Below, piece after piece: positions 1,818 through 35,155 of a stretch of 45,422 nucleotides of DNA. The stretch covers positions 1 through 45,422 of the forward strand of contig CAIFEU010000003.1 of assembly GCA_903789505.1 (NCBI GenBank), in the 5' to 3' direction. Every line of letters begins with the position of its first letter. Positions within the stretch are counted from its first letter, which is position 1. A program made the translations under genes and the position numbers. The notes below the pieces were generated by a model, which was given only the letters and a program-made list of their open reading frames with translations, ran no database searches and had not been told where the DNA came from. This DNA comes from an uncultured Coriobacteriales bacterium (lineage in GTDB: Bacteria > Actinomycetota > Coriobacteriia > Coriobacteriales > UMGS124).

Positions 1818-2390
1818 TCATGCGGCCCCGTCCCCGCGAATGCCGCGAGCGAGGGTCTCCGCCTGTTCGTCGATGATGCCCATGAGTTGATTGACCGACT
1901 CCCTGCGCCCATGGCTCGCCCAGGTGAGCAGGATGCTCAGCGTGAACCCGGTGCGCACCGCCATGAAGAAGTCACCTCGGTCGCCCTCGGTTCTCGGAAG
2001 GGTACCGAAGCGCTCGCGCAGCTCCTCACCGACGCGCCGATGGCTCGCATAGACGATGTCTGCCCTGTTGTTGCGGACGAGCAGCTCGAGAATCTCCCCG
2101 TTCTCCATCCAGTACGAGAAGTACGTGCGAAGCAGCCTGCGCTCGTTGCGGAACTCCCTCGGCCCGAGGCCGCCGAGCGCGGCGCGAAACCCTTCGTCGC
2201 AGCGCCACGCGAGGACGTCGGACAGGTTATCGAAGCACCGGTAGAAGGTCGTCCTCGCGACCCTGCTGCGCCTCTGGACCTCGCTGACCGTCACCCGGTC
2301 GAATGACTCGAGGTCCAGGCACGCAATCAGACCGTCGTAAATCCTCTCCGCGGACCTGCGGCTTCGTCGGTCGTCGCTGATGTGGTACAT
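1818..2390 (-). CDS. TetR/AcrR-family transcriptional regulator
   Basis: 190 aa. The N-terminal HTH region (VTVSEVQRRSRVARTTFYRCFDNL) is typical of TetR_N. Divergent from a membrane-protein gene. Confidence 0.8.
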   Translation of the reverse strand: MYHISDDRRSRRSAERIYDGLIACLDLESFDRVTVSEVQRRSRVARTTFYRCFDNLSDVLAWRCDEGFRAALGGLGPREFRNERRLLRTYFSYWMENGEILELLVRNNRADIVYASHRRVGEELRERFGTLPRTEGDRGDFFMAVRTGFTLSILLTWASHGRRESVNQLMGIIDEQAETLARGIRGDGAA

Positions 2391-2418
2391 GTGGCACCCC
2401 CATCCCCGTCCGACGCCG

Positions 2419-2476
2419 TTTCGCTACGAGTTTGTAGTGTCCTGTAGCGCTACGTTTCGAAACGATTGTAGCGAAA
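2419..2476. promoter_or_regulatory. operator-like palindrome cluster in the TetR / membrane-protein divergent intergenic region
   Basis: TTTCGCTAC (2419-2427) is inverted to TGTAGCGAAA (2467-2476). Between them lie the perfect palindromes GTAGCGCTAC (2444-2453) and CGTTTCGAAACG (2453-2464). Confidence 0.55.
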
Positions 2477-2535
2477 TGCTCCTCGCAGTACAGATGGACA
2501 GACATAAGGTGTCCCGTTTGAGAGGAGCATGAGAG

Positions 2536-3246
2536 ATGTTCGAGGTGTGGCGGTGGTTTGTAGGGTGGGGGTGGCTGTACGCGATGGTCGCGATGAGCAT
2601 CACGCTCGTCGTCCAGATGGTCGTCGCCAAAGCAAGGGGAAGGGGCTGGGACGCCCTGAGGGTCTTGGGCGCCCTGACGGTCGTCGTGCTAACCCTGCAC
2701 GTCTGGGAGGAATGGGTAATCCCCGGGGGCTTCCACTACATCTACAACGCCGGTTCCGACGCCCTCCTACGCGACCGATACCCCATGAACGAGGTCACCG
2801 ACATGATCACGAACCTGGGCGGCGCACTCGTGTGGCTCGTACTGGTCGAACTTGACAGGTACGGGCGAAAGATGGGCTTCGCGGTGATGCTGTTCGGATA
2901 CTTTGAGTTCGCGGTGCACAACCTGCTCGCATATGAATCGATGACCATGCTGTATGAGGCCGACGTCTATTCGGGGTTCTATGCTCCCGGCCTGTTCACT
3001 GCCGTCGCTTGCTGGCTACCGCTGTCTGCCGCCCACACCGCGTGGTTCGCCAAGAATGGCGTCGGATGGAAGGACGCCGTGGGAGGTGTCGTGATCCTCG
3101 TGGTGCTGAGTCAGCTTCTGGTGACCGCCCCGGAGAGTCTCATCAAGAGCGAGGACAATCCCTACGCGTTCCCCAACGCCGGCTGGTACGAGCGGTTCAT
3201 CGACCCCGCGACGCAGGAGATTACGACCGAGGTAGAACGGGGGTAG
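2536..3246 (+). CDS. HXXEE-domain integral membrane protein
   Basis: 236 aa with multiple hydrophobic helices and the motif LHVWEEW (H-x-x-E-E). RBS GAGAGGAG upstream. TAG stop. Confidence 0.7.
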   Translation: MFEVWRWFVGWGWLYAMVAMSITLVVQMVVAKARGRGWDALRVLGALTVVVLTLHVWEEWVIPGGFHYIYNAGSDALLRDRYPMNEVTDMITNLGGALVWLVLVELDRYGRKMGFAVMLFGYFEFAVHNLLAYESMTMLYEADVYSGFYAPGLFTAVACWLPLSAAHTAWFAKNGVGWKDAVGGVVILVVLSQLLVTAPESLIKSEDNPYAFPNAGWYERFIDPATQEITTEVERG

Positions 3247-3439
3247 GGGAGCCGTGGGCTCTCCCCGCCCTCAACGGCCCCGTGCCCCCGCCGTGCCCTC
3301 GCCCACCCCACGCCTGCGCGCCGCGTTCGCGCACCCCGCGCGAGCGCCCGGGCACCTCAAACGCCGAGCGGCCCCGCCAGCGCAATCGCACCGGCGAGGC
3401 CGCTCGTCCCTGCCCCGTGATTCTCGAACCTGTGCCTGC

Positions 3440-8435: not shown

Positions 8436-9797
8436 CTACATTTTTGAATCATTTTCTTTCAATATTCTCTCTATCTCATCCTGTAAATAACTTTGATTGA
8501 GCCAGAAGCACTTCTTGGTCACTGGCATGCCGTGTGGCTGGGGGAGGACGTCGGCAGAGTCCCTGCCATGAGGCCGCACATGGCAGCAGCGATTTTCGCT
8601 CGATTTGACGGAAACGTCCGCCCTGCCGAGCTCGACGTTTCTGCGCATCTGGTCGTAACAGCGCTTGGCCTCGGGGATGTCCCGCTCGGGCATCTGCCAA
8701 AAGCAGAGGTCGGAGAGGCGGTAGAAGCCCCACTCATCTTCACGGTAGATGACGAAGAGCCAGAGCTGCTGAAGGTTTCCGTAGAAGTCCGATTGTTCGA
8801 ACGGCGTCGATTCGAGCTTAAAATAGTCAAATGCCGGGAAGGACACGGCCTCCTTCGGTCGGCCGGTTCTCTTGAGGCGTATCGTTTTAGTCTTCGCCCC
8901 CGCCTTGACGAACTCCTCTATGTCCGCGTCGTCGTCAACGCCGAGAATCCTCCTCGTTACCAGCGCAGCGGCATTCTTCGGGAGGCGCCTCCCGGACACG
9001 GCAACACCAAACCTCTCGCATAGCTGACCCAAAGTCATTCCAAAGAACGGCTGGAATCTCTTCCGCAGCAACGAGAGGAGGTCAAGTTCTCTTTCGTCTT
9101 CACTGCGTTCAATTTTCTGACTGCCGCTCAGCAGCTTGTTCTCTATTACCGTCATATATGACGCCTTGATTGCCCAGGCTCGGGGCTTGGCAGGGACGTC
9201 GGAATACGGCTGCGAACGTCTTACGGAGGAGTTTGCGGCCTTCGTGCATGCCTCGAGGTAGAGTGTGTCGGAACCGGAGATGTCCTCCGCGTGACCCGCC
9301 CTGACCTTGTTTACTATCTTTTCCCAGTCGGCCTTGAACTGGGCGCGGTCCTCTTCGCTGGGGTCCCATTCCTCAGCGAACAGAACTTCATAATCGATTG
9401 GGTTTAGATTCTCTTCCCACAGATACACGATGAGCAGAATCGAGGAAGCCTTCTTCATGAAATGGCTCGTCTCGAAGCTCTCCTTCACGACCTTGTTGTA
9501 ATCGATCATCGTGATTACGAGTCGCTCTTTTGCGACAAGTGACCCTTTGGGATTCCTCTTCATGGGAGTTGTTTTTAGCTCAAGACCTGCTTCAGAAAAA
9601 TCAGGCTCTTGGTTGCTGTTTATGTCATACTTGAAATAATATTCTTCAATGGCATTTCCGAATGACCCTCGCCTTACCTTTGGGTCATCGATTTGCTCGA
9701 TGTGCACTTTTTCTCTCAGCGTATGGCCCACAAGAAATTTGGCGTAATGGATGATGGACTCTCTCGAAGTGATGTCGTAGGGAGGTTCGTTCGCCAT
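8436..9797 (-). CDS. type II restriction endonuclease, MutH/Sau3AI family (probable GATC specificity)
   Basis: 453 aa. N-terminal D...E-x-K catalytic signature PDFSEAGLELKT, as in MutH/Sau3AI. Further segments (PIDYE..., QPYSD..KP..A, CHVRPH near the C-terminus) match my recollection of Sau3AI. Sits immediately upstream of the C5-MTase. Confidence 0.7.
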   Translation of the reverse strand: MANEPPYDITSRESIIHYAKFLVGHTLREKVHIEQIDDPKVRRGSFGNAIEEYYFKYDINSNQEPDFSEAGLELKTTPMKRNPKGSLVAKERLVITMIDYNKVVKESFETSHFMKKASSILLIVYLWEENLNPIDYEVLFAEEWDPSEEDRAQFKADWEKIVNKVRAGHAEDISGSDTLYLEACTKAANSSVRRSQPYSDVPAKPRAWAIKASYMTVIENKLLSGSQKIERSEDERELDLLSLLRKRFQPFFGMTLGQLCERFGVAVSGRRLPKNAAALVTRRILGVDDDADIEEFVKAGAKTKTIRLKRTGRPKEAVSFPAFDYFKLESTPFEQSDFYGNLQQLWLFVIYREDEWGFYRLSDLCFWQMPERDIPEAKRCYDQMRRNVELGRADVSVKSSENRCCHVRPHGRDSADVLPQPHGMPVTKKCFWLNQSYLQDEIERILKENDSKM

Positions 9798-9899
9798 CTC
9801 ACTCCTCCAGTGCCATTAGGGCAGGTTTCATCCCGACCGGGAGCGTATTTCCGCACGTCGTACGCACTCAGAAAAGATAGAAGACAACCAGCAGTCTTC

Positions 9900-10562
9900 T
9901 CATGCCACGTCGATAAACCTGTCGAGAGCCGCAAGCGCCAGCCGCATGCGAAGACCAGCGTTCTGAACATGGTTACCGGGCGTCTTTTCGAAGTGCGTCT
10001 TACAGCCAGCTCCGGAAAGGATGTCCAAGGTCAGGCGCGTCTGCCCCTCAATCGCACGAAGGCGAGGGATTGAGGCGCGCCGTTCACGAGACCCCAAGCT
10101 GACGTAGACAAATCCGCCAGGATTCTCGCACTCGTCAAGTTGAGAGGCGAGCCATTCATTCCAGCCATCGTACCAAAGCGAGCCAGAGACGCTCGCCGCA
10201 GCCCCAAACATCGACGTGCAAACGAATGAATACAGCGAGAAAAGGCCAGCAAGCGAATAGCCTGCTATTGCGCGGCAAGATGGGGTAGGAGACAACCCCA
10301 TGCTTTGCTCGCACGCCGAAGCGTCACCGATAAGGCTCTTAAGGAATGAAGGTGCGCCCCCGGCAAAGGAACCACCCTTCGGACTGAGAGGTTGCGCGGG
10401 CCACGGACTAAGCTTGGCGTTCCATTCATTCACGTAAATTTGCAGTACCGAGCTCGAGAGGTCGTGAGCGACTTCGTCGAGGTCAAACGGCCGCTCGGCA
10501 GAATCGATGAGCCAGATACACTCGTTGTTTGATGCGTGCCCTCGATGAAACGCAAATTCCAT
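9900..10562 (-). CDS. esterase-family alpha/beta hydrolase
   Basis: 220 aa. Nucleophile elbow GYSLAG and a downstream SGSLWY motif typical of the putative esterase family. Confidence 0.65.
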   Translation of the reverse strand: MEFAFHRGHASNNECIWLIDSAERPFDLDEVAHDLSSSVLQIYVNEWNAKLSPWPAQPLSPKGGSFAGGAPSFLKSLIGDASACEQSMGLSPTPSCRAIAGYSLAGLFSLYSFVCTSMFGAAASVSGSLWYDGWNEWLASQLDECENPGGFVYVSLGSRERRASIPRLRAIEGQTRLTLDILSGAGCKTHFEKTPGNHVQNAGLRMRLALAALDRFIDVA

Positions 10563-18825: not shown

Positions 18826-20901
<2,076 letters not shown>

Positions 20902-21146: not shown

Positions 21147-21707
21147 TTAGGACCTCGATGACTTTTTCCATTCCTTGACGGAAATTAGGGCGTTCAGGAC
21201 GTGTTCGCGAAGCGTCGGGTCGGTGATTCCCGACACCATGTCGACGGCTTCCCGACGCTCCTCGGGCGACAGCGGCACGGACTGGGGAGGCACCGCCTCG
21301 TCGTGGTTGGAGTAGCCCTCCGAGAATCCTCCCTCCCGCGCCCGGCGCGAGAGCCTGAACGTGACCTTGTCGACGACGAGGTCCTCCTGGTTCGTGCGCT
21401 CGCAGCGCGCCCTCCACTCGCGCAGAATCTCGAACGAGCGCATCTGGAACTCGTACATCCAGATGTTCGAGTCCACGTAGACGACCATCTCCACGCTGTT
21501 GCGGTGCGAGCGAAACGACAGCCCATTGCAGTGGTCCCGCAGCGTGGGGTCGCCCATCGTCGCCCACAGGCGCAGCGCGCGGGCGACCTTGGCCATGGTC
21601 GGCGTGGCGCGGAACAGCCCGCCCATCACCCCGTCGGCGAGCTCGCCCACCCCCCTCTCGGCGTAGGAGGTGCCCAGGTAGGTCCTGACCTCTTCGTCCA
21701 GGCTCAT
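21147..21707 (-). CDS. DUF721 / DciA-like protein
   Basis: Position between recF and gyrB is conserved in Actinomycetota. The pattern LW...G..L..H......R...L.V.VDS..W..E......IL matches DUF721. Overlaps the recF stop by 4 nt. Confidence 0.7.
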   Translation of the reverse strand: MSLDEEVRTYLGTSYAERGVGELADGVMGGLFRATPTMAKVARALRLWATMGDPTLRDHCNGLSFRSHRNSVEMVVYVDSNIWMYEFQMRSFEILREWRARCERTNQEDLVVDKVTFRLSRRAREGGFSEGYSNHDEAVPPQSVPLSPEERREAVDMVSGITDPTLREHVLNALISVKEWKKSSRS

Positions 21708-22818: not shown

Positions 22819-23922
22819 CTAGTAGTTGGGACGGACGGGCATCACGAGGTACAGGAAGTCGATGTCGCCGGTCGTGCGGAACGTCCCGGGCTTGAACGCG
22901 CTCTCGGCCTCGAACGTGATCATGACGTCATCGTCGGTCTTCTGCAGGCAGTCATAGATGAACCGCGAGTTGAAAGAGATCGACATGTCCTCGCCGTCGA
23001 CCTCGACCGGAAGCTCCTCGCGCGCGCGGCCCTGGTCGGGGATCTTCGAGGTGATGACGAGGACGCCCTGGTCGGCGACAATCTGAAAGTTCACCTCGGA
23101 GTTGTTGACCGTCATCGTCCTGACGCGCTGCATCGACTCATACAGGTCGTTCATCTTGAGCGCGATCTTGGTGGTGTACGACGTGGGGATGAGCTTCTGG
23201 TAGTTGGGGTAGTTGCCCTCGATGCGCCTAGTCACGTACGTCACGTCGCCGAACATGAAGATGATCTGCGACTGGTTGCTCGCGATCGTGATCGTGCGCT
23301 GGTCGCTTGCCAGGGACAGGGCGTTGCGCAGGCTTCTCGACGGGACGATGACCTGGAAGTTCTCGACCTCCGAGACGATCTTCGCGTCGGCGACTGCCAG
23401 GCGCACCGAGTCGGTGGTGACCAGGCGAATCCTGTCGGGCGTCACGTTGAGCAGAATGCCGTTGAGGATGGCGCGGTTCTTATCAGCCGAGGCGGCCACG
23501 ACGACCCTGCTCACCATGTCATTGAGCGTCGAGGCTGGGAGCTCCACCGTCGAGTCGACCGAGAACTCCGGGAATGAGGGATAGTCCTGCGGGGCGAAGG
23601 TGTTGATGCTGAAGTAGCTCGTCCCGCTCGTGACGTTGATGGAGCTCCCGTCGGTCTCGAACGAGACGACGCCCTCCCCGAGATGGCCGATCACGTCGTT
23701 GAGAAGCTTGGTGGGAACGACGACCTGACCCGGCTCTTCGATGTTCGCGATGACCTTCTGGCGAAGGCTCACGTCCATGTTCGTGTTCTCGAGGATGAGC
23801 TGGTCCTCGGTTGCCGTGATGAGAACGCCCGTGAGGATGGAGAGGGTCGAGTTCATCTCAACGCCCTTGAGGGCCTTGTTGAGTGCGGTCTTGATCGTGT
23901 CCCTCTCGACGATGAACTTCAT
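22819..23922 (-). CDS. dnaN: DNA polymerase III beta sliding clamp
   Basis: Canonical N-terminus MKFIVERD (ATG at 23922; the ORF track starts 3 codons earlier at a GTG). Three-domain length. TAG stop. Confidence 0.93.
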   Translation of the reverse strand: MKFIVERDTIKTALNKALKGVEMNSTLSILTGVLITATEDQLILENTNMDVSLRQKVIANIEEPGQVVVPTKLLNDVIGHLGEGVVSFETDGSSINVTSGTSYFSINTFAPQDYPSFPEFSVDSTVELPASTLNDMVSRVVVAASADKNRAILNGILLNVTPDRIRLVTTDSVRLAVADAKIVSEVENFQVIVPSRSLRNALSLASDQRTITIASNQSQIIFMFGDVTYVTRRIEGNYPNYQKLIPTSYTTKIALKMNDLYESMQRVRTMTVNNSEVNFQIVADQGVLVITSKIPDQGRAREELPVEVDGEDMSISFNSRFIYDCLQKTDDDVMITFEAESAFKPGTFRTTGDIDFLYLVMPVRPNY

Positions 23923-23954
23923 CCGTCCCACCCCATCCGCTTAATAAGGTTTTG

Positions 23955-24315
23955 GTAGCTGTAGCTGTAGTGTCTGTTAGGATTGTTGGAAAGCCGAATT
24001 CCTGCAGCTCAGGGATAAGAAATCTTATCACATGGCTCTGTTGGCAAACCTTTCGAATGGGGCCCGCCAAACCAATCGACATCTCTCCTACCGCATCGGC
24101 TTTCAACCGGCTTTCAAACGCAGACTCACCGCAGACGAACAACCTTTCATCGGTGCTTCCAACGGGGTTTTCCACATCGGTCGATGGTGATGATCCACGT
24201 GGGCGGACTTTTCCACCTTTTGCACCCTCCTGTGGAAAACCAGGTTGAAAATGTGCGCAAAGGGCCTCCCGATCAGCGTCCCTAGCAGCGCGATGGCGCC
24301 TCCGCGGGTTTCCAA
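23955..24315. promoter_or_regulatory. DnaA-box cluster in the dnaA-dnaN spacer (oriC part 2)
   Basis: TTTTCCACA at 24168, TGATCCACG at 24191, TTTTCCACC at 24209, inverted TGTGGAAAA at 24231, and CTTTCAAC/GTTGAAAA at 24100, 24111 and 24244. Also the palindrome GATAAGAAATCTTATC (24013-24028) and the hexamer-periodic GTAGCTGTAGCTGTAGTG (23955-23972). Confidence 0.7.
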
Positions 24316-24352
24316 CGTTCCCGTGACGGCCCCGCACGGCGCCCCGTGTGCC

Positions 24353-26242
24353 CTATCGGTTCTTGATCGCCTTCTGCAGGTGCTCCAGCTTGTACATGAA
24401 CGTGCGGTCGCTCTGCGACATGTGCTCGATCTTGGTGATGGAGCTCAGTGCCGTGGTGTGGTCGCGGTCGAAGAACGAGCCTATCGACGAGTACGTGCCG
24501 TCGGTCATCTGGCGCGCGAGCCACATAGACACCTGCCTGGCCTCGCTGACCTGCTTCGTCCTGCGCTTCCCGCGCATGTCCTGCTCCGAGACCCCGTATT
24601 CCTTGGCCACGACCTTCACGATCGTCGAGAGCTCGACCTTGTGCTCCTCGCGGTACATCTCGTCGTGGATCGCGCGAATCCTGTCCTCGGTCAGCTCGAC
24701 GTTGGGCTTCGTGCTCTCCTTGAGCATGACCGTGTTGAGGAAGCCAAGCATCTCGCGGATGCTGTTGGGAGAGTACTGGGCGATCCAGGTGAGCTCGCGG
24801 TCGCCCAGCTCGCGGTTGTTGGCGTGGAACCACGATATCTGGGCGCGCTTGCGCTCGTAGTAGCTCTTGAGGATTGACAGCTTCAGCTCCAGGCTCGGCT
24901 GCGCGATGCTCAGGACGGTCCCGCTGCTGAACCGCGTCTTCATGCGCTCGTCGAGCTGCAGGTAGTCCGGCGGCTCGTCCGCCGTCAGGACGATCGTCTT
25001 GCCCTGGTAGATGAGCTGGTTGAAGATGTCGAAGAACGTCGTCATCGTCTCTTGCTTGTTGACGAGGAACTGCACGTCGTCGATGAGCAGGATGTCAGTG
25101 TCGCGGTACTTCTTCATGACCTCCTTGCCGCGGCGCTTTCTGTTGATGATGTCCTCGATGTAGTCCTCGGTGAAGTTGTTGGAGCTCGCATAGACCACCT
25201 TCACCTCGCTGTTCCGATACATGTGGATGTAGTTCATGATCGCGAACAGCAGGTGGGTCTTCCCCAGCCCGCTCTTGCTGTAGAAGAAGATGGGGTTCGG
25301 GGGGACCCTGTCGCCCTCAGCCACCTCGCGGGCGACGTCGTAGGCCATGCGGTTCGCCTCGCCCACGACGAAGGTGTCGAACGTGAAGTCCTCGATCGCG
25401 AGCTTGGTGGAAGAACCCGCCGCTTTCGAGGTGGCTCCCGCGCCTGCCCGAGCTGCTGCCGGTGCGGCGGTCGGCGTCCCCGCCTGGGTTCCGGCGCTCT
25501 CCGAGGTCTCGACGATGGTCGCGATGCGCGGTGCCTCCTGGGACGGGGCGCCTGCGGGCACCTCCTCCCGCACGGGCTGGGCCGCGGGCGCCGTCGCCGT
25601 GGGGGTCACGGGGGTCTGCACCATGACGGGGGCCGGCACTCCCTCGGGGATGATGTCTATCTCGCCCGCCTTCTCCGCCCGGGCTTCGGTCGGGGAGCCC
25701 CCGGGCACGACGGAGCCCATCGCCGGAACCTCGGGCGCCGGCGGGGTGAGGGGCTGCGCCGCGGGGGCGACGGTCGGCCAGGCGGCGGGCCTCGGCCCGG
25801 TCGCTGGCATCGGCTCGGGTGTGACGGGCGCGGGCGCGAGGACGACGGGCGTCGCCGCCGGCCGGGCCGGGGCCTGGGGCGCGGGGGTCGGGGAGGTCGC
25901 GGGTGCCGCCTCGGGCGTCTCCTGCCGCTGACCCTGCGGTTCGCCCGTGGCAAGCGTCTGGGGGTCCGCGGTGCTGAACAGCGACGCGTCGACCACGACC
26001 CTGAAGTCCAGGTCCATCAGCGTGATCTGCTTGATCCACCCCTCGATCAGCGACTTGTAGTTGGTCATCACGTTCTGCTCGGTCCACCTGAACTGCGTGA
26101 GCGCGGTGAACGTTCCGTTCTCTATCGAGTAGGGGCGCAGACGCTCCAGCCATGCCGAGATCGACGGGTCCTCCCGGTAGGACTTTGCGAGGTTCTGGAC
26201 GTCGGTCCATATGGTGACGGCATCTTGAAATGAAGACATCAT
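24353..26242 (-). CDS. dnaA: chromosomal replication initiator DnaA (long Pro/Ala-rich domain II)
   Basis: AAA+ Walker A GLGKTHL, Walker B LLIDDVQF, and the C-terminal DnaA signature/HTH region (DHTTALSSITKIE). Confidence 0.95.
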   Translation of the reverse strand: MMSSFQDAVTIWTDVQNLAKSYREDPSISAWLERLRPYSIENGTFTALTQFRWTEQNVMTNYKSLIEGWIKQITLMDLDFRVVVDASLFSTADPQTLATGEPQGQRQETPEAAPATSPTPAPQAPARPAATPVVLAPAPVTPEPMPATGPRPAAWPTVAPAAQPLTPPAPEVPAMGSVVPGGSPTEARAEKAGEIDIIPEGVPAPVMVQTPVTPTATAPAAQPVREEVPAGAPSQEAPRIATIVETSESAGTQAGTPTAAPAAARAGAGATSKAAGSSTKLAIEDFTFDTFVVGEANRMAYDVAREVAEGDRVPPNPIFFYSKSGLGKTHLLFAIMNYIHMYRNSEVKVVYASSNNFTEDYIEDIINRKRRGKEVMKKYRDTDILLIDDVQFLVNKQETMTTFFDIFNQLIYQGKTIVLTADEPPDYLQLDERMKTRFSSGTVLSIAQPSLELKLSILKSYYERKRAQISWFHANNRELGDRELTWIAQYSPNSIREMLGFLNTVMLKESTKPNVELTEDRIRAIHDEMYREEHKVELSTIVKVVAKEYGVSEQDMRGKRRTKQVSEARQVSMWLARQMTDGTYSSIGSFFDRDHTTALSSITKIEHMSQSDRTFMYKLEHLQKAIKNR

Positions 26243-26259
26243 TTTCTAATCCAAACAGA

Positions 26260-27546
26260 CTAAATGTTGGTAATGAACTTCTTGCCCTCGTCGGTCAGGC
26301 AGTACTTCTTGTTGTTGTTTGGCTTGTAGATGAGGCCGATCTTGTTCAGCTCCTGCAATCGCCTCGTCCCCGTCGAGAGGCTCACGCCCAGGCTCTCGTT
26401 GACGTCCGTCGTGCCTACCTGCCTCTGCCTCTTGAAGAGGAGCAGGACCTGCCTGAGGCTCTCGCTTATCGCGCGCGGGGCGTCAGCGGCACCGGCGGAA
26501 GGCGCCGCGTCGCCCGTCCCCTGCGGCTCCGGCATCCCCTGCGGGGCCCGCGTCGCTGCGTGGTCGGGCTGTGCGACGGGGGACGGCGGGAAGTCGCCGT
26601 ACTGCCGCTGCGGCTGCGCGGCGAAGGCCTGCTGGGTGCCCTGCATCGCAGGGAAGCCCTGGGCGTACTGGGGAACGGGGTAGGGAGCGTACTGTCCCGG
26701 TGCGTACTGCTGCTGTCCCGGTGTGACCTGCTGTGGCTGATAGCCGTACGGGTATCCGTAGTAGGGGTAGTACATCGGCTGCTGGCCGTACTGGGGAGGT
26801 GCCGCATAGGGCTGCTGGGGAGATGTCGTCACGGGCATCGCGCCTGCCGCCCCGGGCGTCGGCATGCCCACATAGCCCGAAGCCGCGGGGATTGCGGCGG
26901 GCACCTGCTGTTGTCCCGGCATCGTCGGCGTGGGCTGCGCCTGCGGGGAGCCCGCCTGGGAGGGCATCCCGGCGTCTCCCTCCACGTAACCGGCCCCCTC
27001 GGGGTCGTTGGCGTGAGCGTGGGCCAGGGAGATCGTGACGACCGTCCCATGACCGATGTTGTCCTCGATCGTGATGGTTCCCCCGCGCGCGTGGATGTTC
27101 TGCTCGACCGTCGGGAAGCCGCTGCCCACGCCGCGGATGTACTTCTTCATCTCCCGCGTCGCGGAGGTGAACGACGGCTTGATCGCCGCCTGCTTGTTCG
27201 GTATGCCGGGGCCTTGGTCACTGAAGATGAGCGTCTGTCCCTTGTCGAGGATCGAGATGGTGGGTTCGATGAAGTACGCGTGGATGTAGTTTTCCACCAG
27301 CTCGCGCACCGTCGAGTAGCCGAAGCTCCCTCCCTGCTGCATCATCAGCTGGTAGACGGTGTCCTGGATTTCCTGCAGATAGGTCCTGATGTCCTTGGGC
27401 TCGATGACGACGACGCGCGGCGGCATCGTCGGGTCGTCGTACACCGCTATGCGCGCCGGGTACGATGGTTCCGGCAGCTCATTTTCACCTTCATGATGGT
27501 TATCATCATTTGAACTGTTTTCTACAAACGGATAAAAAGTATCCAT
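26260..27546 (-). CDS. GHKL-type ATPase domain / Q-Y-P-rich low-complexity region / C-terminal winged-HTH protein
   Basis: N box ELVENYIHA, G1 DQGPGIP, G2 GVGSGFP. About 180 aa are Q/P/Y/G/A-rich (QQPMYYPYYGYPYGYQPQQ). The C-terminus VGTTDVNESLGVSLSTGTRRLQELNKIGLIYK is HTH-like. TAG stop 17 nt before the dnaA ATG. Confidence 0.7.
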   Translation of the reverse strand: MDTFYPFVENSSNDDNHHEGENELPEPSYPARIAVYDDPTMPPRVVVIEPKDIRTYLQEIQDTVYQLMMQQGGSFGYSTVRELVENYIHAYFIEPTISILDKGQTLIFSDQGPGIPNKQAAIKPSFTSATREMKKYIRGVGSGFPTVEQNIHARGGTITIEDNIGHGTVVTISLAHAHANDPEGAGYVEGDAGMPSQAGSPQAQPTPTMPGQQQVPAAIPAASGYVGMPTPGAAGAMPVTTSPQQPYAAPPQYGQQPMYYPYYGYPYGYQPQQVTPGQQQYAPGQYAPYPVPQYAQGFPAMQGTQQAFAAQPQRQYGDFPPSPVAQPDHAATRAPQGMPEPQGTGDAAPSAGAADAPRAISESLRQVLLLFKRQRQVGTTDVNESLGVSLSTGTRRLQELNKIGLIYKPNNNKKYCLTDEGKKFITNI

Positions 27547-27721
27547 ATTGAATTACTTTCTATAATGATAGATAACCAACAATCCGAGTAATGAGCATTG
27601 TAGAACAAAGGGTGACGAGAGTCTCTTGCGCCGCCGCTTGCCTTCGGTCCGGGCTGCGCTTGCGCGTCGTGAAAAGAGCAAGTTGGGAAAAGGCCTGCTT
27701 ACAGTGCCCTTACGTGGTTTG

Positions 27722-28041
27722 GTTTTCAACCTATGACAATGGCTTTCAACAGGTATAACACAGTTTTCCACACTCCGTGCTTTCAACAGTGTTGAAAACT
27801 CGCCCCTGAAATTCCGAAATTGTTGAAAACTCGGTGAGAACCGTTGAAAACGGCATTCCAAGGTTTGAAATGTTCAATTGCTCCAAGAATTTGTTATATC
27901 TAATTAAATATTCAAATTAATGATACACATTAAATAATTAATAGTCATATATTGTAGAAATATAGATTTCATTAATCTATATTCAACATATGAAATTCAG
28001 TGCACCTAAGCATCCTTTCGGGTGTCGAAATTGTTTTCAAC
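27722..28041. promoter_or_regulatory. oriC part 1: cluster of TTTTCAAC/GTTGAAAA boxes plus one TTTTCCACA DnaA box, flanking an AT-rich element
   Basis: 8-mers at 27722, 27743, 27780 and 28034 (forward) and 27791, 27822 and 27843 (inverted), with a variant at 27863. TTTTCCACA at 27764. Perfect palindrome TTTCAAC-AGT-GTTGAAA at 27781-27797. Confidence 0.7.
27885..28000. promoter_or_regulatory. strongly AT-rich tract, candidate DNA-unwinding element
   Basis: About 115 bp that are almost all A/T (ttatatctaattaaatattcaaattaatgataca...), in a genome whose genes are mostly GC-rich. Bracketed by the box cluster. Confidence 0.6.
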
Positions 28042-28182
28042 GCCATTCTGTTGTAAGCGGCGGGTGAAAAGGTGAAAGGGGAGGCGGAGGACGGCCGCCG
28101 ACGGGCTTGCGGGGCGAGGGCGCGCATGGTCGAACCCGCTGGTCATCCGTGTGTTCGTTCGGTTGACGCACGGTGATGCCGT

Positions 28183-28211
28183 TTGACGCCTAAAGGTGCT
28201 CTCCTTATACT
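28183..28211 (+). promoter_or_regulatory. rpmH promoter
   Basis: TTGACG, 17 nt, TATACT, located about 55 nt upstream of the rpmH ATG. Confidence 0.6.
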
Positions 28212-28266
28212 CTACTGGCTATTCTGTCTGCATTCGCAGCATATATACGCCAGGAGGATTTGTACT

Positions 28267-28422
28267 ATGAAGCGCACATGGCAGCCCAACAAGCGGAAGC
28301 GTGCCACCACTCACGGCTTCCGTACCCGTATGGCAACGAAGAACGGCCGCAAGGTCCTCGCGCGTCGTCGCGCCAAGGGTCGCAAGAAGCTCACCGTCTC
28401 TGACGAGCGAAACACCAAGTAG
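28267..28422 (+). CDS. rpmH: 50S ribosomal protein L34
   Basis: [44 protein letters not shown] is near-consensus L34. AGGAGG RBS. Short C-terminal extension. Confidence 0.95.
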
Positions 28423-28426
28423 CTCG

Positions 28427-28768
28427 ATGCAGGGCACTATTAAATCGGGCGCCCGGATTGACTTGATGTTTCAACAAGGCGCTCACTTTAATAGTAGAGA
28501 ACTCTCGCTTATTACATTTTCTGACGATGAAATGCAACGCGACCCTGCTCTCTCGGGTCGCGTTGCATTTATTGCAGGTAAGCGACTCGGCAATGCCGTC
28601 ATCAGAAATAGGAGCAAGCGAGTCTTGAGGGCCGCCGCGTACGAGGCAGGCCTGCCCGTTGCTGGGCACGATGTCATCCTGATTGCCAATCGTCGCACGC
28701 GATTCGTTAAGCACGACGAGCTGGTGGCCTCCCTCTGCAGGCTCCTCAAGAAGGCCGGGCTCAGATGA
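28427..28768 (+). CDS. rnpA: ribonuclease P protein component
   Basis: Position after rpmH. RNR motif region [14 protein letters not shown]. 113 aa from the ATG at 28427. Confidence 0.88.
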
Positions 28769-29040
28769 GCAGAGGCGTCGTTGGATGGATTTCGCACATC
28801 CCGAGGTTTGTCCTTCTCACGCTGATTAACTTCTATCGCGCCTGCATTTCTCCTCATTTTCCGGCCTGCTGTAGATATATCCCCACATGCTCGCAGTATG
28901 CTTTGACTGCGGTGGAGCGCTTCGGGGCGCTTCGTGGCGGCTGGCTTACCCTCAAGAGGATTCTTCGCTGCAATCCTTTCCATGCGGGTGGTTTTGACCC
29001 CGTTCCCGACAGCTTCTCGTTTGCAGGCCATTCCAAGTAG
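28765..29040 (+). CDS. yidD: membrane protein insertion efficiency factor YidD
   Basis: [33 protein letters not shown]...RILRCNPF signature. ATGA overlap with rnpA. Confidence 0.9.
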
Positions 29041-30494: not shown

Positions 30495-30637
30495 GTTCTC
30501 GAGTGCCTTTCAACTGATTGGAAGATATCATGGGGGAGACAGATGATGTCTCCCCCTTTTTCTGCCAAAAATCGGCGCCTCGCCAATTCTTGGCAGACTG
30601 CGTGTCAACGTTTCCCGTCTTGAAGGAGATGCGTCCC

Positions 30638-31444
30638 ATGCATTTGAATGAAGCGGGGGTTTCCTTTCCGATTAGCGATGAGATCAAGGTCGACGCCGCG
30701 GACAAGCTACTTTCCTTTGTCACCGCCTACGGCATCGACATCTCGGATGATGCATGCAAGAAGGAAATCGATTACCTCGAGATGATGCTCGAGAAGAATC
30801 AGTTTCTCAATCTCACTGCGGTTCGTGACTTTCAGAAGGGAATTATCCTTCATCTCGTCGATTCGTTGCTATATCTCAAAGAGATGAGAAAGTATTGTCC
30901 CTTCCTTGAGTATGACAGCGATGATGACGAAGAAGGCCACTCAAGCTTCGTTGACATGGGCTGTGGTGCAGGCCTCCCCGGAATTCCCCTTGCTATCGCC
31001 GACTCTTCTCTCCGTGGCGTACTATGTGACTCAACCAAAAAGAAGATTGCCGCGGTAGATGAGTTCATCGACAAGCTTTCCCTCGAGTCCCAGCTGTCAA
31101 CGTCCACACTTCGTCTGGAGGACCTCGCTCGGTCTCGAGGCTCTTCGTTTCCCTTCGCGCTCACTCGAGCGCTCTCTTCTCTGCCGACCGTCCTGGAATA
31201 CGGCAAACCCTTCTTGGCTGAGGACGGCGTTCTTATCGTATCCAAGGGAACTCCTGACGAGACCGAGCTTCGGAGGGCAAAGAGAGTCCAGAATCTTCTC
31301 GGGTTTGAGTTGATAGAGGTCGACGAGTTCGAGCTTCCTCTGGACTTTGGGCACAGGTCAATCTTTGTCTACAACAACGTCGGCGAGTCTCATGTCGAAC
31401 TTCCGAGAGCGGTCGGTATGGCGACCTCCTCTCCCCTTGCCTGA
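30638..31444 (+). CDS. rsmG: 16S rRNA (guanine527-N7)-methyltransferase RsmG
   Basis: NLTAVRD, SAM motif VDMGCGAGLPGIPLAI, and DS..KK. Start set at the ATG 9 nt after GAAGGAG; the ORF is open from 30518, so the start is uncertain. Confidence 0.8.
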   Translation: MHLNEAGVSFPISDEIKVDAADKLLSFVTAYGIDISDDACKKEIDYLEMMLEKNQFLNLTAVRDFQKGIILHLVDSLLYLKEMRKYCPFLEYDSDDDEEGHSSFVDMGCGAGLPGIPLAIADSSLRGVLCDSTKKKIAAVDEFIDKLSLESQLSTSTLRLEDLARSRGSSFPFALTRALSSLPTVLEYGKPFLAEDGVLIVSKGTPDETELRRAKRVQNLLGFELIEVDEFELPLDFGHRSIFVYNNVGESHVELPRAVGMATSSPLA

Positions 31445-31510: not shown

Positions 31511-31985
31511 GATTTGCATTCAGTGCGAACCCCGTTGAGACCCAGTCGCAGATCTGACTGGAAATGCCGGTGTGGCATGTAAGCGCCATTTCGGTTCTGG
31601 GAGCCACCATCACTTGGGGTCAGAATTTGCGTCATGCTGGTCTTCCCGGATGTGTGACGCCAAATTGTGTCGTATCTGATGCAGAGGCTTTAATGACGGA
31701 ACTGATCTCCTTCATTGCCGATATCTGCTGTTCTTACTCATTGATTCAAGCACTAGGCTGACCATGTGGCGCGCCAAGTCCATAGTCAACTATGTGGTGA
31801 GTTTCGAAACGAATGTTCTTGTTGACTTGTCCCCCTTGCTCTTGACTCCTATCGTGCGATTGAACGTCGTGTTCCTATGGGTTCTTTCGAGATTTCTCTT
31901 TCCATGATGCGCGTTAGTTGTCAACTCTTCCTATGGTTGAATCACATTCTGTCTCACAATTTTTCTAATCTTCGCATTTTCATCT

Positions 31986-33085
31986 GGCGAATCCTCACTC
32001 CGAGCGCAACGACCCCTGAGCAGCGGAAGGCCCACGAGACTCCTACGATGGTGCTTGCGAAGACATCCGTCGGAGGGGGTCCCATGGGCCAGTACCACCA
32101 TCTTAGCCTCGCCGAGCGCGAGGACATCATGTTAATGCGCAGGGAGCGCATGGGCGTCCGCGAGATAGCCCGTGCCATCGGGAGGGACAAGTCCACCGTC
32201 TCCAGGGAGCTCGCCCGCAACTCCTCCCCGACGGGGGCGGTCCCCTACCACGGGGCGTCGACGGCCCAGCGGAAGAGCGAGCGGCGCCGCGCCCGCTGCC
32301 GCAGGCCGAGGCTGATGGACGACCCCGAGAGGAGGGCCCTGGTCGTGTCGAAGGTGCGCGACGACCGCTGGTCGCCCGAGCAGGTGGAGGGCAGGATCCG
32401 CGCGGAGCGCCCGGAGCTCGCCGTGAGCGACTCGACCATCTACCGGGCGATCGCGTCCGGCTCGCTCGACTGCGAGCTGCCGGGCCACCGCAGGATGTCC
32501 CGCATGCTGCGGCACCGTGGCAAGCGGCGCCGTCGCAGGGGGACGGAGGAGCGCAGGGGCAGGATCGAGGTCACGCACGAGCTCTCGGAGCGCCCTCCCG
32601 AGGCGTCGCGCCGCTCGCGGCCGGGCGACTGGGAGGGCGACACGGTCGCGGGGCGCCAGGGCGCCGCCTGCCTCGTGACGCTGGTGGACCGCAGGAGCGG
32701 CTACCTGGCCGGGGGGCTCGCGGCCCGGAAGTCGGCCGCGGAGGTCACCCGCGTCGTCGAGTCCTCGCTCTCCGGGATGCCCGCCGAGACGCTGACGCTG
32801 GACCGCGGCAAGGAGTTCGCCAGGGCCGCGGACATGCAGCGCGACCTGGGGACGCCGGTCTTCTTCTGCCTGCCCCACCATCCCTGGGAGAGGGGCACGA
32901 ACGAGAACACCAACGGGCTTCTGCGTGACTTCTTCCCGAAGGGCGGGAGCCTGGACGCGACGACGGACGAGGAGGTCCAGGCAGTCTATGCTACCCTCAA
33001 CCGCAGACCGCGCAAGCGCCTCGGCTGGAAGTGCCTCGAGGAGGTCTTCCACTCGAAGGCGTTGCACTTGCTATGAGGATTCGCC
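31986..33085 (+). mobile_element. IS30-family insertion sequence (1100 bp) with 3-bp target-site duplication TCT
   Basis: 26-bp imperfect terminal inverted repeats (GGCGAATCCTCA... at 31986-32011, with complement at 33060-33085; 21/26 match). TCT at 31983-31985 and 33086-33088. GC far higher than the flanks. The transposase stop lies inside the right IR. Confidence 0.88.
32084..33076 (+). CDS. IS30-family transposase
   Basis: N-terminal HTH (LSLAEREDIMLMRRERMGVREIARAIGRDKSTVSREL). DDE region GDWEGDTV...TLDRGKEF...PHHPWERGTNENTNGLLR. ATG after GGAGGGGG. Confidence 0.92.
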   Translation: MGQYHHLSLAEREDIMLMRRERMGVREIARAIGRDKSTVSRELARNSSPTGAVPYHGASTAQRKSERRRARCRRPRLMDDPERRALVVSKVRDDRWSPEQVEGRIRAERPELAVSDSTIYRAIASGSLDCELPGHRRMSRMLRHRGKRRRRRGTEERRGRIEVTHELSERPPEASRRSRPGDWEGDTVAGRQGAACLVTLVDRRSGYLAGGLAARKSAAEVTRVVESSLSGMPAETLTLDRGKEFARAADMQRDLGTPVFFCLPHHPWERGTNENTNGLLRDFFPKGGSLDATTDEEVQAVYATLNRRPRKRLGWKCLEEVFHSKALHLL

Positions 33086-33489: not shown

Positions 33490-34272
33490 ATGAAAAAGAG
33501 AAAAAACGAAGGACCATCACGAGTCATTGTGATAATGAATCAAAAAGGCGGTGTAGGGAAGTCAACAACGGCAGTAAATTTGGCAGCAGCATTAGGAAAG
33601 AAATATAAAGTACTTGTCGTTGACTTTGACCCGCAGGGGAATGCCACCTCTGGTCTGGGAATAGACAAAAACACGGTAGTCGGAAGCATATACGACGTGA
33701 TTTTGGGCGATTTAAGCGCCTCAGAGGTCGTAGTGAAGTCGGGAACAACTGACGTATACGTGATTCCCTCAACCATACAACTTGCCGGCGCAGAGATTGA
33801 ACTGGTACCAGTCGAGAAGAGGGAATTCGTTCTCAAGAACAGTCTGAATGAGATTGAGGATGACTATGACTTCATCCTGATAGACTGTCCGCCCTCTCTG
33901 GGGATATTGACTCTGAACGCAATGGCAGCGGGAAATGAACTTCTCATCCCAATCCAGTGCGAATACTATGCGCTTGAAGGCGTGAGTAAACTACTTGAGT
34001 CACTGAAAATGGTTCAAGCAAAGATAAATCCAGACATTCACATCCTCGGGATACTAATGACGATGTATGACTCGCGAACTTCGCTGTCAAAGCAGGTGGT
34101 GAAGGAAGTGCAGTCGTACTTTGGCAATCAAGTGTTCAAGACCATAATCCCGAGGAGCGTAAGACTGAGCGAGGCTCCAAGCTACGGGCAGTCCGTCCTT
34201 GACTTTGCGCCTCATAGCAAAGGGGCGACAGCCTACAAGAACCTCGCGAAGGAAGTGATTAAGCGTGGCTAA
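33490..34272 (+). CDS. parA: chromosome partitioning ATPase ParA/Soj
   Basis: Deviant Walker A NQKGGVGKSTT, then DFDPQGN and IDCPPSLG motifs. Confidence 0.93.
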   Translation: MKKRKNEGPSRVIVIMNQKGGVGKSTTAVNLAAALGKKYKVLVVDFDPQGNATSGLGIDKNTVVGSIYDVILGDLSASEVVVKSGTTDVYVIPSTIQLAGAEIELVPVEKREFVLKNSLNEIEDDYDFILIDCPPSLGILTLNAMAAGNELLIPIQCEYYALEGVSKLLESLKMVQAKINPDIHILGILMTMYDSRTSLSKQVVKEVQSYFGNQVFKTIIPRSVRLSEAPSYGQSVLDFAPHSKGATAYKNLAKEVIKRG

Positions 34273-35155
34273 AAAAACGGGTCTCGGAAGAGGACTGGGT
34301 TCATTAATCAGTGAAACGACGCTTGAGGCAAACACCGAGGAGATGCTTAAAGGTCAGGATGCAACGCCGACTGCGGAGCTAAACATTGAGATGATTCACC
34401 GGAACATCCATCAGCCGCGCACGCAGTTCGATGAGGATGAGCTCCAGGAGTTGGCGGACTCTATCAAGCAGGTTGGAATTCTGCAGCCAATTATTGTCCG
34501 TCCGGATGGTGAGAAATTTCAAATCATCGCGGGCGAGAGAAGATATCAGGCGGCGGTGAAAGCGGGACTCAAGAAAGTACCCGTCATTATCAGAGATGTT
34601 CAAGACAAGGAAATGCTTGAACTGGCTTTGATAGAGAATATCCAAAGAAGTAATCTTAATAGCATCGAAGAAGCACGAGCATATCGTGAGCTCATGAGTT
34701 CGACTCAAGTCACGCAGGAAGAGCTCTCAAAGATGCTATCCAAGTCCCGGTCTGCGGTCGCGAATACGTTGCGCCTGCTTGAACTACCCGACGAGGTGCA
34801 AGACCTGGTATTTGACGGGAAACTTACGGCGGGCCATGCGCGCGCTCTCCTCTCTCTGAAGGATGAAGAGACCCAAATCAAAATGGCATACAAGATTGTG
34901 AAGGAGAAGATGTCAGTCAGGCAGGTCGAGGAGAGCGTGAAGCGTCTGCTTGAAGATAAGCCGGCACGCACCAGAGCGAAGAAGCCTGCAGAGTATGTGT
35001 CACTCGAGAAGCAGCTGTCCGCCCATTTCGGAACTAAGGTAAAGCTGAAGCTGGGCAAGGACAGTGCTGCGTCAAAGATTGAAATTTCATTCTCGAACGA
35101 AGAACAGTTGGAGCGAATACTCAACATAATGAACCAGGGGATGGATGAGGGATGA
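34265..35155 (+). CDS. parB: chromosome partitioning protein ParB/Spo0J
   Basis: GLGRGLGSLI N-terminus, the ParB box IIAGERRYQAA (GERR arginine patch), and an HTH. GTG start overlapping the parA stop. Confidence 0.93.
   Translation: MAKKTGLGRGLGSLISETTLEANTEEMLKGQDATPTAELNIEMIHRNIHQPRTQFDEDELQELADSIKQVGILQPIIVRPDGEKFQIIAGERRYQAAVKAGLKKVPVIIRDVQDKEMLELALIENIQRSNLNSIEEARAYRELMSSTQVTQEELSKMLSKSRSAVANTLRLLELPDEVQDLVFDGKLTAGHARALLSLKDEETQIKMAYKIVKEKMSVRQVEESVKRLLEDKPARTRAKKPAEYVSLEKQLSAHFGTKVKLKLGKDSAASKIEISFSNEEQLERILNIMNQGMDEG

Follow-up and report, generated by a model that had tools for sequence, protein, structure and literature searches.

Organization of the dnaA region

The window analysed here is the whole 45,422-nt stretch (positions 1 to 45,422 of the forward strand) of contig CAIFEU010000003.1, assembly GCA_903789505.1, from an uncultured Coriobacteriales bacterium. 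At positions 26260-27546 of the minus strand it carries a gene, named X here, which has an ATG start and a TAG stop, encodes 428 aa and, according to the open reading frame (ORF) listing, homologues and synteny, is the first gene of an X-dnaA-dnaN array. Downstream of X are dnaA (24353-26242, minus strand; 629 aa; Pfam Bac_DnaA, 5e-48, and Bac_DnaA_C, 1e-23) and then dnaN (22819-23931, minus strand). The divergent side is occupied by rpmH (28267-28422, plus strand, with a promoter-like site at 28183-28211), rnpA, yidD, yidC, jag and rsmG. A preliminary description, made from the sequence alone, had placed a 428-aa ORF co-directional with dnaA in the rpmH-dnaA interval, its TAG 17 nt from the dnaA ATG with no hairpin between; the ORF coordinates, the neighbouring genes and the hairpin-free minus-strand spacer at 26243-26259 agree with this.

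Opposite X, a 427-aa ORF (26230-27513, plus strand) could be taken for a gene by an ORF caller, but was rejected as a shadow ORF, an artefact usual in GC-rich DNA. Since X has family matches and thousands of homologues (more than 1,900 at 90% clustering), it is the real gene of the two opposed ORFs and a genuine protein-coding gene.

Distribution of X and its linkage to dnaA

Word-indexed searches with three X queries, each scoring no more than 8,000 candidates, returned at least about 2,000 to 3,400 clusters each at 90% identity, and an exhaustive search at 50% identity yielded 379 clusters with E<1e-30 and 1,208 with E<1e-3. Among the best 150 matches listed, every one examined was Coriobacteriia-like. 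The names given to these proteins in the source databases include "ATP-binding protein", "helix-turn-helix domain-containing protein", "histidine kinase", "MarR family transcriptional regulator" and "anti-sigma regulatory factor". X was found in Coriobacteriales (Olsenella, Parafannyhessea, Tractidigestivibacter, Collinsella and Enorma), in Eggerthellaceae (Adlercreutzia, Gordonibacter, Arabiibacter and Rubneribacter; Gordonibacter is placed in Eggerthellales by the NCBI taxonomy) and in metagenome-assembled genomes named "Coriobacteriia bacterium".

A scan of one genome per GTDB species detected relatives of X at no fewer than 549 genomic stretches. Eighty GTDB loci were fetched, and two were left out because the contig ended before dnaA could appear. 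In all 78 evaluable loci, X is immediately upstream of dnaA-dnaN on the same strand, with rnpA-yidC-jag in divergent orientation upstream of X. The same arrangement was found in 8 more divergent loci (from environmental Coriobacteriia, Arabiibacter, Gordonibacter and others), bringing the total to 86 of 86 evaluable loci, and a ninth, truncated one has a DnaA_N-like start downstream of X. Parvibacter caecicola (L084; GCA_910576135.1, 1-13077) differs from the other Coriobacteriia examined in having a rearranged origin region: gyrA-gyrB-recF-dnaN lie upstream of X on the opposite strand, and rpmH-yidC-jag-gidB-parA downstream of dnaA; X and dnaA are still adjacent and co-directional despite this rearrangement. 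The preliminary description had proposed that homologues unlinked to dnaA or oriC would speak against it; every evaluable locus proved to be linked. The X-dnaA linkage is class-wide in Coriobacteriia, and dnaA is the only gene consistently linked to X.

DnaA boxes and candidate origin sequences

The DnaA box TTTTCAACA, with at most one mismatch allowed, occurs 18 times in the window compared to 2.9 times expected, a number reached in none of 100 shuffles. Thirteen of these 18 boxes fall in the two intergenic regions flanking the X-dnaA pair (9 in the X-rpmH spacer and 4 in the dnaA-dnaN spacer, the latter forming a second cluster at 23984-24251), and the exact 8-mer TTTTCAAC has all of its six window occurrences within these two spacers. 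Seven of the boxes upstream of X are clustered at 27723-27850, and this cluster probably doubles as the control region for the X-dnaA promoter. An AT-rich stretch at 27880-27999 is a candidate DNA-unwinding element, with 16% GC at 27900-27999 against 62.6% for the window overall, and two further TTTTCAACA-type boxes are present at 27980-27988 and 28034-28042. Of 33 dereplicated rpmH-X spacers, 29 have the same 8-mer as their top motif, and DnaA boxes are found no more than about 140 nt from the start codon of X. Given the excess of boxes in the flanking spacers and the 16% GC stretch, it was accurate to describe X as "embedded in the origin", directly upstream of dnaA. An Rfam scan of 23000-29000 gave no known RNA.

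One DnaA-box-like 9-mer, TTTTCTACA (one mismatch; 27518-27526, plus strand), is located inside X at codons 7-10 (F-V-E-N), overlapping the codons of the conserved N-terminal peptide described below. It may be a coincidence or a box that extends into the coding start.

Transcription of X and dnaA

A consensus scan of the minus strand from the X start to dnaA detected neither a terminator-like hairpin nor a sigma-70-like promoter, and with a spacer of 17 nt the two genes are likely to be co-transcribed in this window. Among the 78 evaluable GTDB loci the minimum X-dnaA gap has a median of 15 nt (19 nt in 29 dereplicated loci) and ranges from -22 to 322 nt; X and dnaA overlap in five of the 78, and the gap is between -22 and 30 nt in 64. 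The environmental loci have gaps of 4-24 nt in 4 of 5 cases (L083 and L087-L089), with 156 nt in L086.

Upstream of X in Coriobacteriaceae, four or five DnaA boxes are grouped in a block ending in TTGTTGAAAG, the TTGAAA of which forms the predicted -35 element, about 17 nt before a TACTAT -10 element and ~45-60 nt before the X start codon. Judging from these elements, X seems to be the first gene driven by the classic autoregulated dnaA promoter in this family. As the X promoter region is packed with DnaA boxes, expression of X should track DnaA.

ATP-binding domain and N-terminal peptide

A Bergerat-fold ATP-binding domain was assigned to aa ~30-175 of X (27022-27459, minus strand) by Pfam, invariant columns, AlphaFold2 (AF2) and Foldseek. 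The Pfam HATPase_c model matches aa 79-175 with 36.2 bits (gathering threshold 26.4) and is matched by 33 of 33 X homologues. The motifs of this fold are the N box (E82/E85-N86-H89), G1 (D110-G112-G114), G2 (G139-G141-G143) and G3 (G167). Those quoted in the preliminary description, which had reported GHKL motifs at aa ~60-185, were all located as described: ELVENYIHA at aa 82-90, DQGPGIP at aa 110-116, GVGSGFP at aa 139-145 and GGTITIEDNIGHGTVVTI at aa 155-172. Four alignments were made, of 33, 115, 19 and 130 sequences (A1 to A4), with the window protein included in A1, A2 and A3 and three divergent subfamilies covered. E85, N86, H89, D110, G112, G114, G139, G141, G143 and G167 are invariant in A1-A3, as are their equivalents in A4. 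Since the nucleotide-binding residues are invariant across the alignments, ATP binding is probably retained.

With the 115-sequence alignment, AF2 predicted aa 30-175 confidently (predicted local distance difference test score, pLDDT, ~90), and Foldseek placed the domain among the catalytic and ATP-binding (CA) domains of histidine kinases and PDK/BCKDK with probability 1.0. NCBIfam and PDB sequence searches with X returned only histidine-kinase catalytic domains and a weak SpoIIAB match. X has no HisKA/DHp-type Pfam match at E<=1; two strands and a single helix (aa 53-70) precede the N-box helix in the AF2 model. No response regulator was found among the neighbours in the window or in the related loci examined (rpmH-rnpA-yidD-yidC-jag-rsmG on one side and dnaA-dnaN-recF-gyrB on the other). 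On these two grounds, which had already been put forward in the preliminary description, X was ruled out as a classical histidine kinase.

The N-terminal peptide M-D-T-F-Y-P-F-V (aa 1-8; 27523-27546, minus strand) is conserved and is followed by a variable spacer (aa 9-29), which differs in length and sequence among homologues before the folded domain begins. F4, P6 and F7 are invariant in 115 sequences. The peptide takes the form F4-Y-P6-F7-V in the group of the window protein, DDFYPFVDSGDPAPDNxH(L/I)TG in the Collinsella type and MKxFY in environmental members. GHKL proteins such as GyrB, MutL and Hsp90 recurrently have a strap at the N terminus, which upon dimerization reaches over to the ATP site of the partner. 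By analogy, the N-terminal peptide of X is possibly a dimerization strap.

C-terminal winged helix

The C-terminal aa ~363-428 (26263-26460, minus strand) form a predicted basic winged helix-turn-helix (wHTH) domain with a net charge of +7 and a recognition helix around S391-T-G-T-R-R-L397. In the AF2 model of this domain, helices at aa 362-373, 379-386, 390-403 and 419-427 and strands at aa 376-378 and 414-417 have pLDDT values of 92-98, and the model of a short-linker homologue has the same wHTH topology with a two-strand wing. The window protein alone scores below the Pfam wHTH threshold (PF25213, 18.9 bits versus 35); 29 of 33 homologues match PF25213 at E<=1e-3, several match MarR, IclR or ArsR models, and the family profile matches the MarR-family protein AdcR in the PDB (E 8e-4). 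PADLOC matched the same region to Csa3/CasR-type regulator models. As this match covered the wHTH only, X was ruled out as a member of a defence system. The wHTH proposed in the preliminary description for aa ~366-428 was thus borne out, with its assignment to the MarR/ArsR type amended: the closest type is Csa3/HVO_A0261/MarR/IclR. The net charge of +7 is suggestive of DNA binding.

Disordered tether

Between the two domains, aa ~176-362 (26461-27021, minus strand) form a P/A/Q/G/Y-rich, charge-poor tether, predicted to be disordered on the basis of composition and an AF2 pLDDT below 50 (across aa 180-356). Residues 181-362 comprise 19% P, 17% A, 16% Q, 12% G and 9% Y, and 7% are charged. The best 60-aa stretch of the tether has 80% Q/P/Y/G, 22% Tyr and no charged residue. 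The Q/P/Y run quoted in the preliminary description lies at aa 244-273. No other long ORF of the window has a stretch of such composition. Lacking Asn and containing much Pro and Ala, the tether is of the Y/Q/P type, not of the yeast-prion Q/N type.

Among 115 relatives the linker measures 28-276 aa (median 142), and it reaches about 380 aa in one GTDB locus; its composition is kept while its sequence is not conserved. We compared the X linker with domain II of DnaA and found median values of 10.3% versus 1.7% for aromatic residues, 15.7% versus 4.1% for Gln and 6% versus 17% for charged residues. The X linker is by far the more aromatic of the two in 28 of 28 dereplicated gut-lineage genomes (paired Wilcoxon p = 7e-9, a value that overstates independence since the lineages are related). 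In the linkers of some lineages Trp replaces Tyr. This swap and the contrast with DnaA domain II of the same genomes suggest that the composition has been selected rather than produced by GC bias, and point to compositional selection on an aromatic, Q-rich tether in gut lineages. In contrast, linkers of 28-50 ordinary charged residues were found in Atopobiaceae-type proteins (P0084, P0092 and P0120) and in a large environmental subfamily, whose proteins have about 280-320 aa in total. As the environmental subfamily has short, ordinary linkers, the "prion-like" segment is probably an elaboration in host-associated lineages and not the core of the family. The charge-poor, Q/P/Y/G/A-rich composition noted in the preliminary description for aa ~186-365 was therefore found as described, but a prion-like tether is not a constant part of the family, since the linker varies from 28 to ~380 aa and the environmental subfamily lacks the prion-like form.

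Domain II of the window DnaA (aa ~95-280, ~190 aa) is Pro/Ala/Thr-rich with 0.5% aromatic residues and accounts for the length of 629 aa; related genomes encode a domain II of about 30 to 270 aa. X and DnaA each carry a long disordered segment, opposite in flavour.

Relationship to known proteins

In both sequence and structure, aa ~80-175 of X are best matched by the CA domains of histidine kinases such as HK853, CpxA, ZraS and WalK/YycG, which share with X the fold and the N, G1, G2 and G3 motifs. Unlike these kinases, X lacks a DHp/HisKA domain, a phospho-acceptor His, a sensor or membrane part and a response regulator, and it has a wHTH fusion and a position before dnaA.

The only solved structure matching both domains of X in order is DIP2311 of Corynebacterium diphtheriae (PDB 3lmm), which we take to be a COG2865-type AlbA_2/HATPase_c_4/wHTH protein of unknown function. 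It is the top Foldseek match of the short-linker homologue (E 9e-7, 280-296 aligned columns, TMq 0.43-0.45) and the match with the best TM value for the window protein. X, however, has no AlbA_2/Schlafen-like N-terminal domain, with only about 30 residues preceding the ATP-binding domain. No AlbA_2 or HATPase_c_4 Pfam match was obtained at E<=1, nor any PF13749 match, and X has no detectable sequence similarity to DIP2311. Membership in the COG2865/DIP2311 family was ruled out by the absence of both the AlbA_2 domain and an HATPase_c_4 sequence match. To our knowledge, DIP2311 has neither a long disordered tether nor linkage to dnaA.

Known regulators of DnaA or oriC include YabA, SirA, Soj, Hda, DiaA/HobA and SeqA, the response regulators Spo0A, CtrA, MtrA and HP1021, and AdpA. 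The role of these proteins, acting at oriC or on DnaA, is the one proposed below for X, and X, like dnaA, is under DnaA boxes. X has no homology to any of them, Pfam and NCBIfam giving only HATPase and wHTH families, and we know of no DnaA/oriC regulator that contains a GHKL domain or is a class-wide fixed neighbour in the dnaA operon. As the preliminary description had supposed, no described initiation regulator of this architecture was found in full-text literature searches, nor was any paper describing the X family, and the dnaA and oriC passages of one review (PMC4255298) do not mention it. The parts of X are each known in kind (a histidine kinase-like CA domain, a MarR/Csa3-like wHTH and an actinobacterial Y/Q/P-rich linker); the architecture and the conserved context are new.

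Possible role of X

Taken together, the domain composition and the genomic context suggest, with a probability that we put at roughly 0.5, that X is a DnaA-box-controlled, DNA-anchored and ATP-dependent partner of DnaA, modulating initiation and/or transcription of the dnaA operon and thus having a role in DnaA/origin control. For any specific mechanistic step our confidence is much lower; binding of X to DNA at the origin, binding of ATP and action on DnaA are what we infer from sequence and position. The winged helix would anchor X to DNA in or beside the origin or the dnaA promoter, while the ATP-binding head, on its tether, would change state with ATP, likely by dimerization and possibly with the N-terminal peptide as a strap. 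In the ATP-bound state X might then exert a local effect on DnaA or on dnaA-operon transcription, and could in this way couple initiation, or the supply of DnaA, to nucleotide status. Lacking a catalytic partner domain, the head could act by ATP-dependent dimerization, by protein binding or as a serine kinase. Since the linker is so long and disordered, it would pass only tethering and avidity, not allostery. In the tether of gut lineages, Tyr/Trp "stickers" among Q/P "spacers" could add multivalent self-association.

Several observations weigh against a partnership with DnaA at the origin. The recognition helix differs among subfamilies (STAYRDL, PTWSREL, STGTRRL and STVHxxL), whereas the DnaA-box motif stays similar across the rpmH-X spacers compared, so that one shared specific site is unlikely. 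By k-mer enrichment in the 33 dereplicated rpmH-X spacers and alignment of 15 Coriobacteriaceae upstream regions, no palindrome and no operator distinct from DnaA-box-like motifs was found upstream of X, the only conserved elements being DnaA-box-like, promoter or ribosome-binding sites. The 73-322-nt gaps between X and dnaA in Atopobiaceae-type loci (L010, L013, L014, L021, L025, L048, L050, L056 and L065) contain a conserved TATAAT that has DnaA boxes on either side, e.g. TTTTCAACATATAATG...TTTTCAACA; this element, absent from the window, is by its sequence a second, dnaA-proximal autoregulated promoter. As dnaA has its own box-flanked promoter there, co-transcription is not obligatory in the family, and the co-transcription proposed in the preliminary description is likely for this window but does not extend to the family as a whole. 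The AF2 monomer models of X and of the short-linker homologue leave the N-terminal peptide undocked (pLDDT ~50). Moreover, the neighbourhood alone cannot separate a role in replication from one in transcription only, and we infer rather than observe each of the three activities on which the partnership depends, namely DNA binding, ATP binding and an effect on DnaA.

A role in transcription only would make X a plain one-component transcription factor, with an N-terminal domain that senses ATP/ADP or another small ligand and a wHTH that regulates the dnaA operon or other genes; X would then have no direct part in origin firing and would sit beside dnaA only through the shared, autoregulated promoter. 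The order of a sensor followed by a C-terminal wHTH is that of Csa3/CasR-type and MarR-like regulators: Csa3/CasR and MarR/IclR one-component regulators have, like X, a C-terminal wHTH of similar profile and an N-terminal ligand- or nucleotide-binding domain. X is the promoter-proximal gene of a DnaA-box-controlled promoter, and a lineage-variable recognition helix is expected of a regulator that co-evolves with its own operator. The N-terminal domain of X, however, is a Bergerat ATPase and not a CARF or MarR dimerization domain, and with 28-380 disordered residues separating sensor from wHTH, X would be poorly designed for ligand-controlled DNA binding. A palindromic operator, which was sought in the 33 spacers and the 15 aligned upstream regions, did not emerge, the X-dnaA pair survived the rearrangement in Parvibacter, and X is kept even where dnaA has its own promoter. 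We regard this explanation as rather unlikely. It is quite unlikely that X is a SpoIIAB/RsbW-like serine kinase or ATP-dependent sequestering factor brought to the origin by its wHTH, with DnaA or a sigma factor of the dnaA promoter as the target. SpoIIAB and RsbW, which bind a protein partner in an ATP-dependent manner, have a stand-alone Bergerat domain without DHp, as X does; the N-box context E-x-x-x-N-x-x-H-A and the Arg before G2 resemble those of anti-sigma kinases such as SpoIIAB; NCBIfam gave a weak SpoIIAB match over aa 83-173 (E 6e-4); and JGI labels some members "anti-sigma regulatory factor (Ser/Thr protein kinase)". Yet the TIGR01925 model scores only 19.7 bits against a cut-off of 135, HATPase_c_2 is not matched, no STAS or sigma gene adjoins X in any of the loci for which genes were called, structural similarity is greatest to histidine-kinase CA domains and DIP2311, and X carries a tether and a wHTH in addition. 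Membership in the SpoIIAB family itself was ruled out by the score and the absence of STAS/sigma neighbours.

That X is a scaffold for origin organization or segregation, in which the wHTH would bind origin-proximal DNA with low specificity, self-association or condensate formation driven by the tether would position or insulate the origin, and ATP would tune the assembly, seems improbable to us. Such a scaffold could account for a sticker-and-spacer composition that is kept without sequence conservation (10% aromatic, 16% Q and 6% charged residues, in 28 of 28 lineages when compared with the DnaA linker) and for the exchange of Tyr for Trp in some lineages. But the tether of the environmental subfamily and some Atopobiaceae consists of only 28-50 ordinary charged residues, so this cannot be the ancestral function, and ParA and ParB are encoded nearby. 

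In a bolder form of the proposed DnaA partnership, X would represent an initiation regulator of a new class, with a GHKL head gated by ATP and tethered to DNA of the origin; it would dimerize on ATP via the F-Y strap, bridge the two DnaA-box clusters that flank X-dnaA or capture DnaA, and so set origin firing, with the Tyr/Trp-Gln-Pro tether of gut lineages adding condensate-like origin clustering. We consider this combination speculative, with a modest chance of being right.

How DnaA is controlled has been worked out in detail in only a few model phyla, each of which uses unrelated proteins, and we know of no initiation regulator described in Coriobacteriia, the class of Collinsella, Eggerthella, Gordonibacter and Olsenella, gut genera of high abundance and medical relevance. 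A gene that stays beside dnaA throughout the class, even where the origin has been rearranged, points to a DnaA partner about as strongly as genomic evidence can. Should X prove to act on initiation, it would be the first ATPase of the GHKL type to do so and would offer a direct route for nucleotide status to reach the origin; it would also provide a natural example of a tunable disordered linker tethering an enzyme-like head to DNA. Orthologues of X are present in cultured species.

Other features of the window

The predicted L34 protein encoded by rpmH (51 aa) carries a 7-residue extension, SDERNTK, past ...KGRKKLTV, where L34 usually ends. In gyrB (18826-20901, minus strand), an in-frame TAG at 20302-20304 interrupts the reading frame; the HATPase part (20302-20901) and the DNA_gyraseB/Toprim/C-terminal part (18826-20283) share the same frame, and the TAG may stem from an error in the assembly, mark a pseudogene allele or reflect the recoding of an essential gene. 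An IS30-like transposase gene (HTH_38 and rve; 31877-33076, plus strand) is located between rsmG (30518-31444) and parA/parB (33490-35155), breaking up the jag-rsmG-parA-parB array usual in related loci. In the environmental Coriobacteriia loci L087-L089, a DciA gene (PF05258; about 9680-10260) follows recF in the same array. The corresponding position in the window is occupied by a 186-aa ORF (21147-21707, minus strand), which has no Pfam match at 1e-5 and may encode a divergent DciA.

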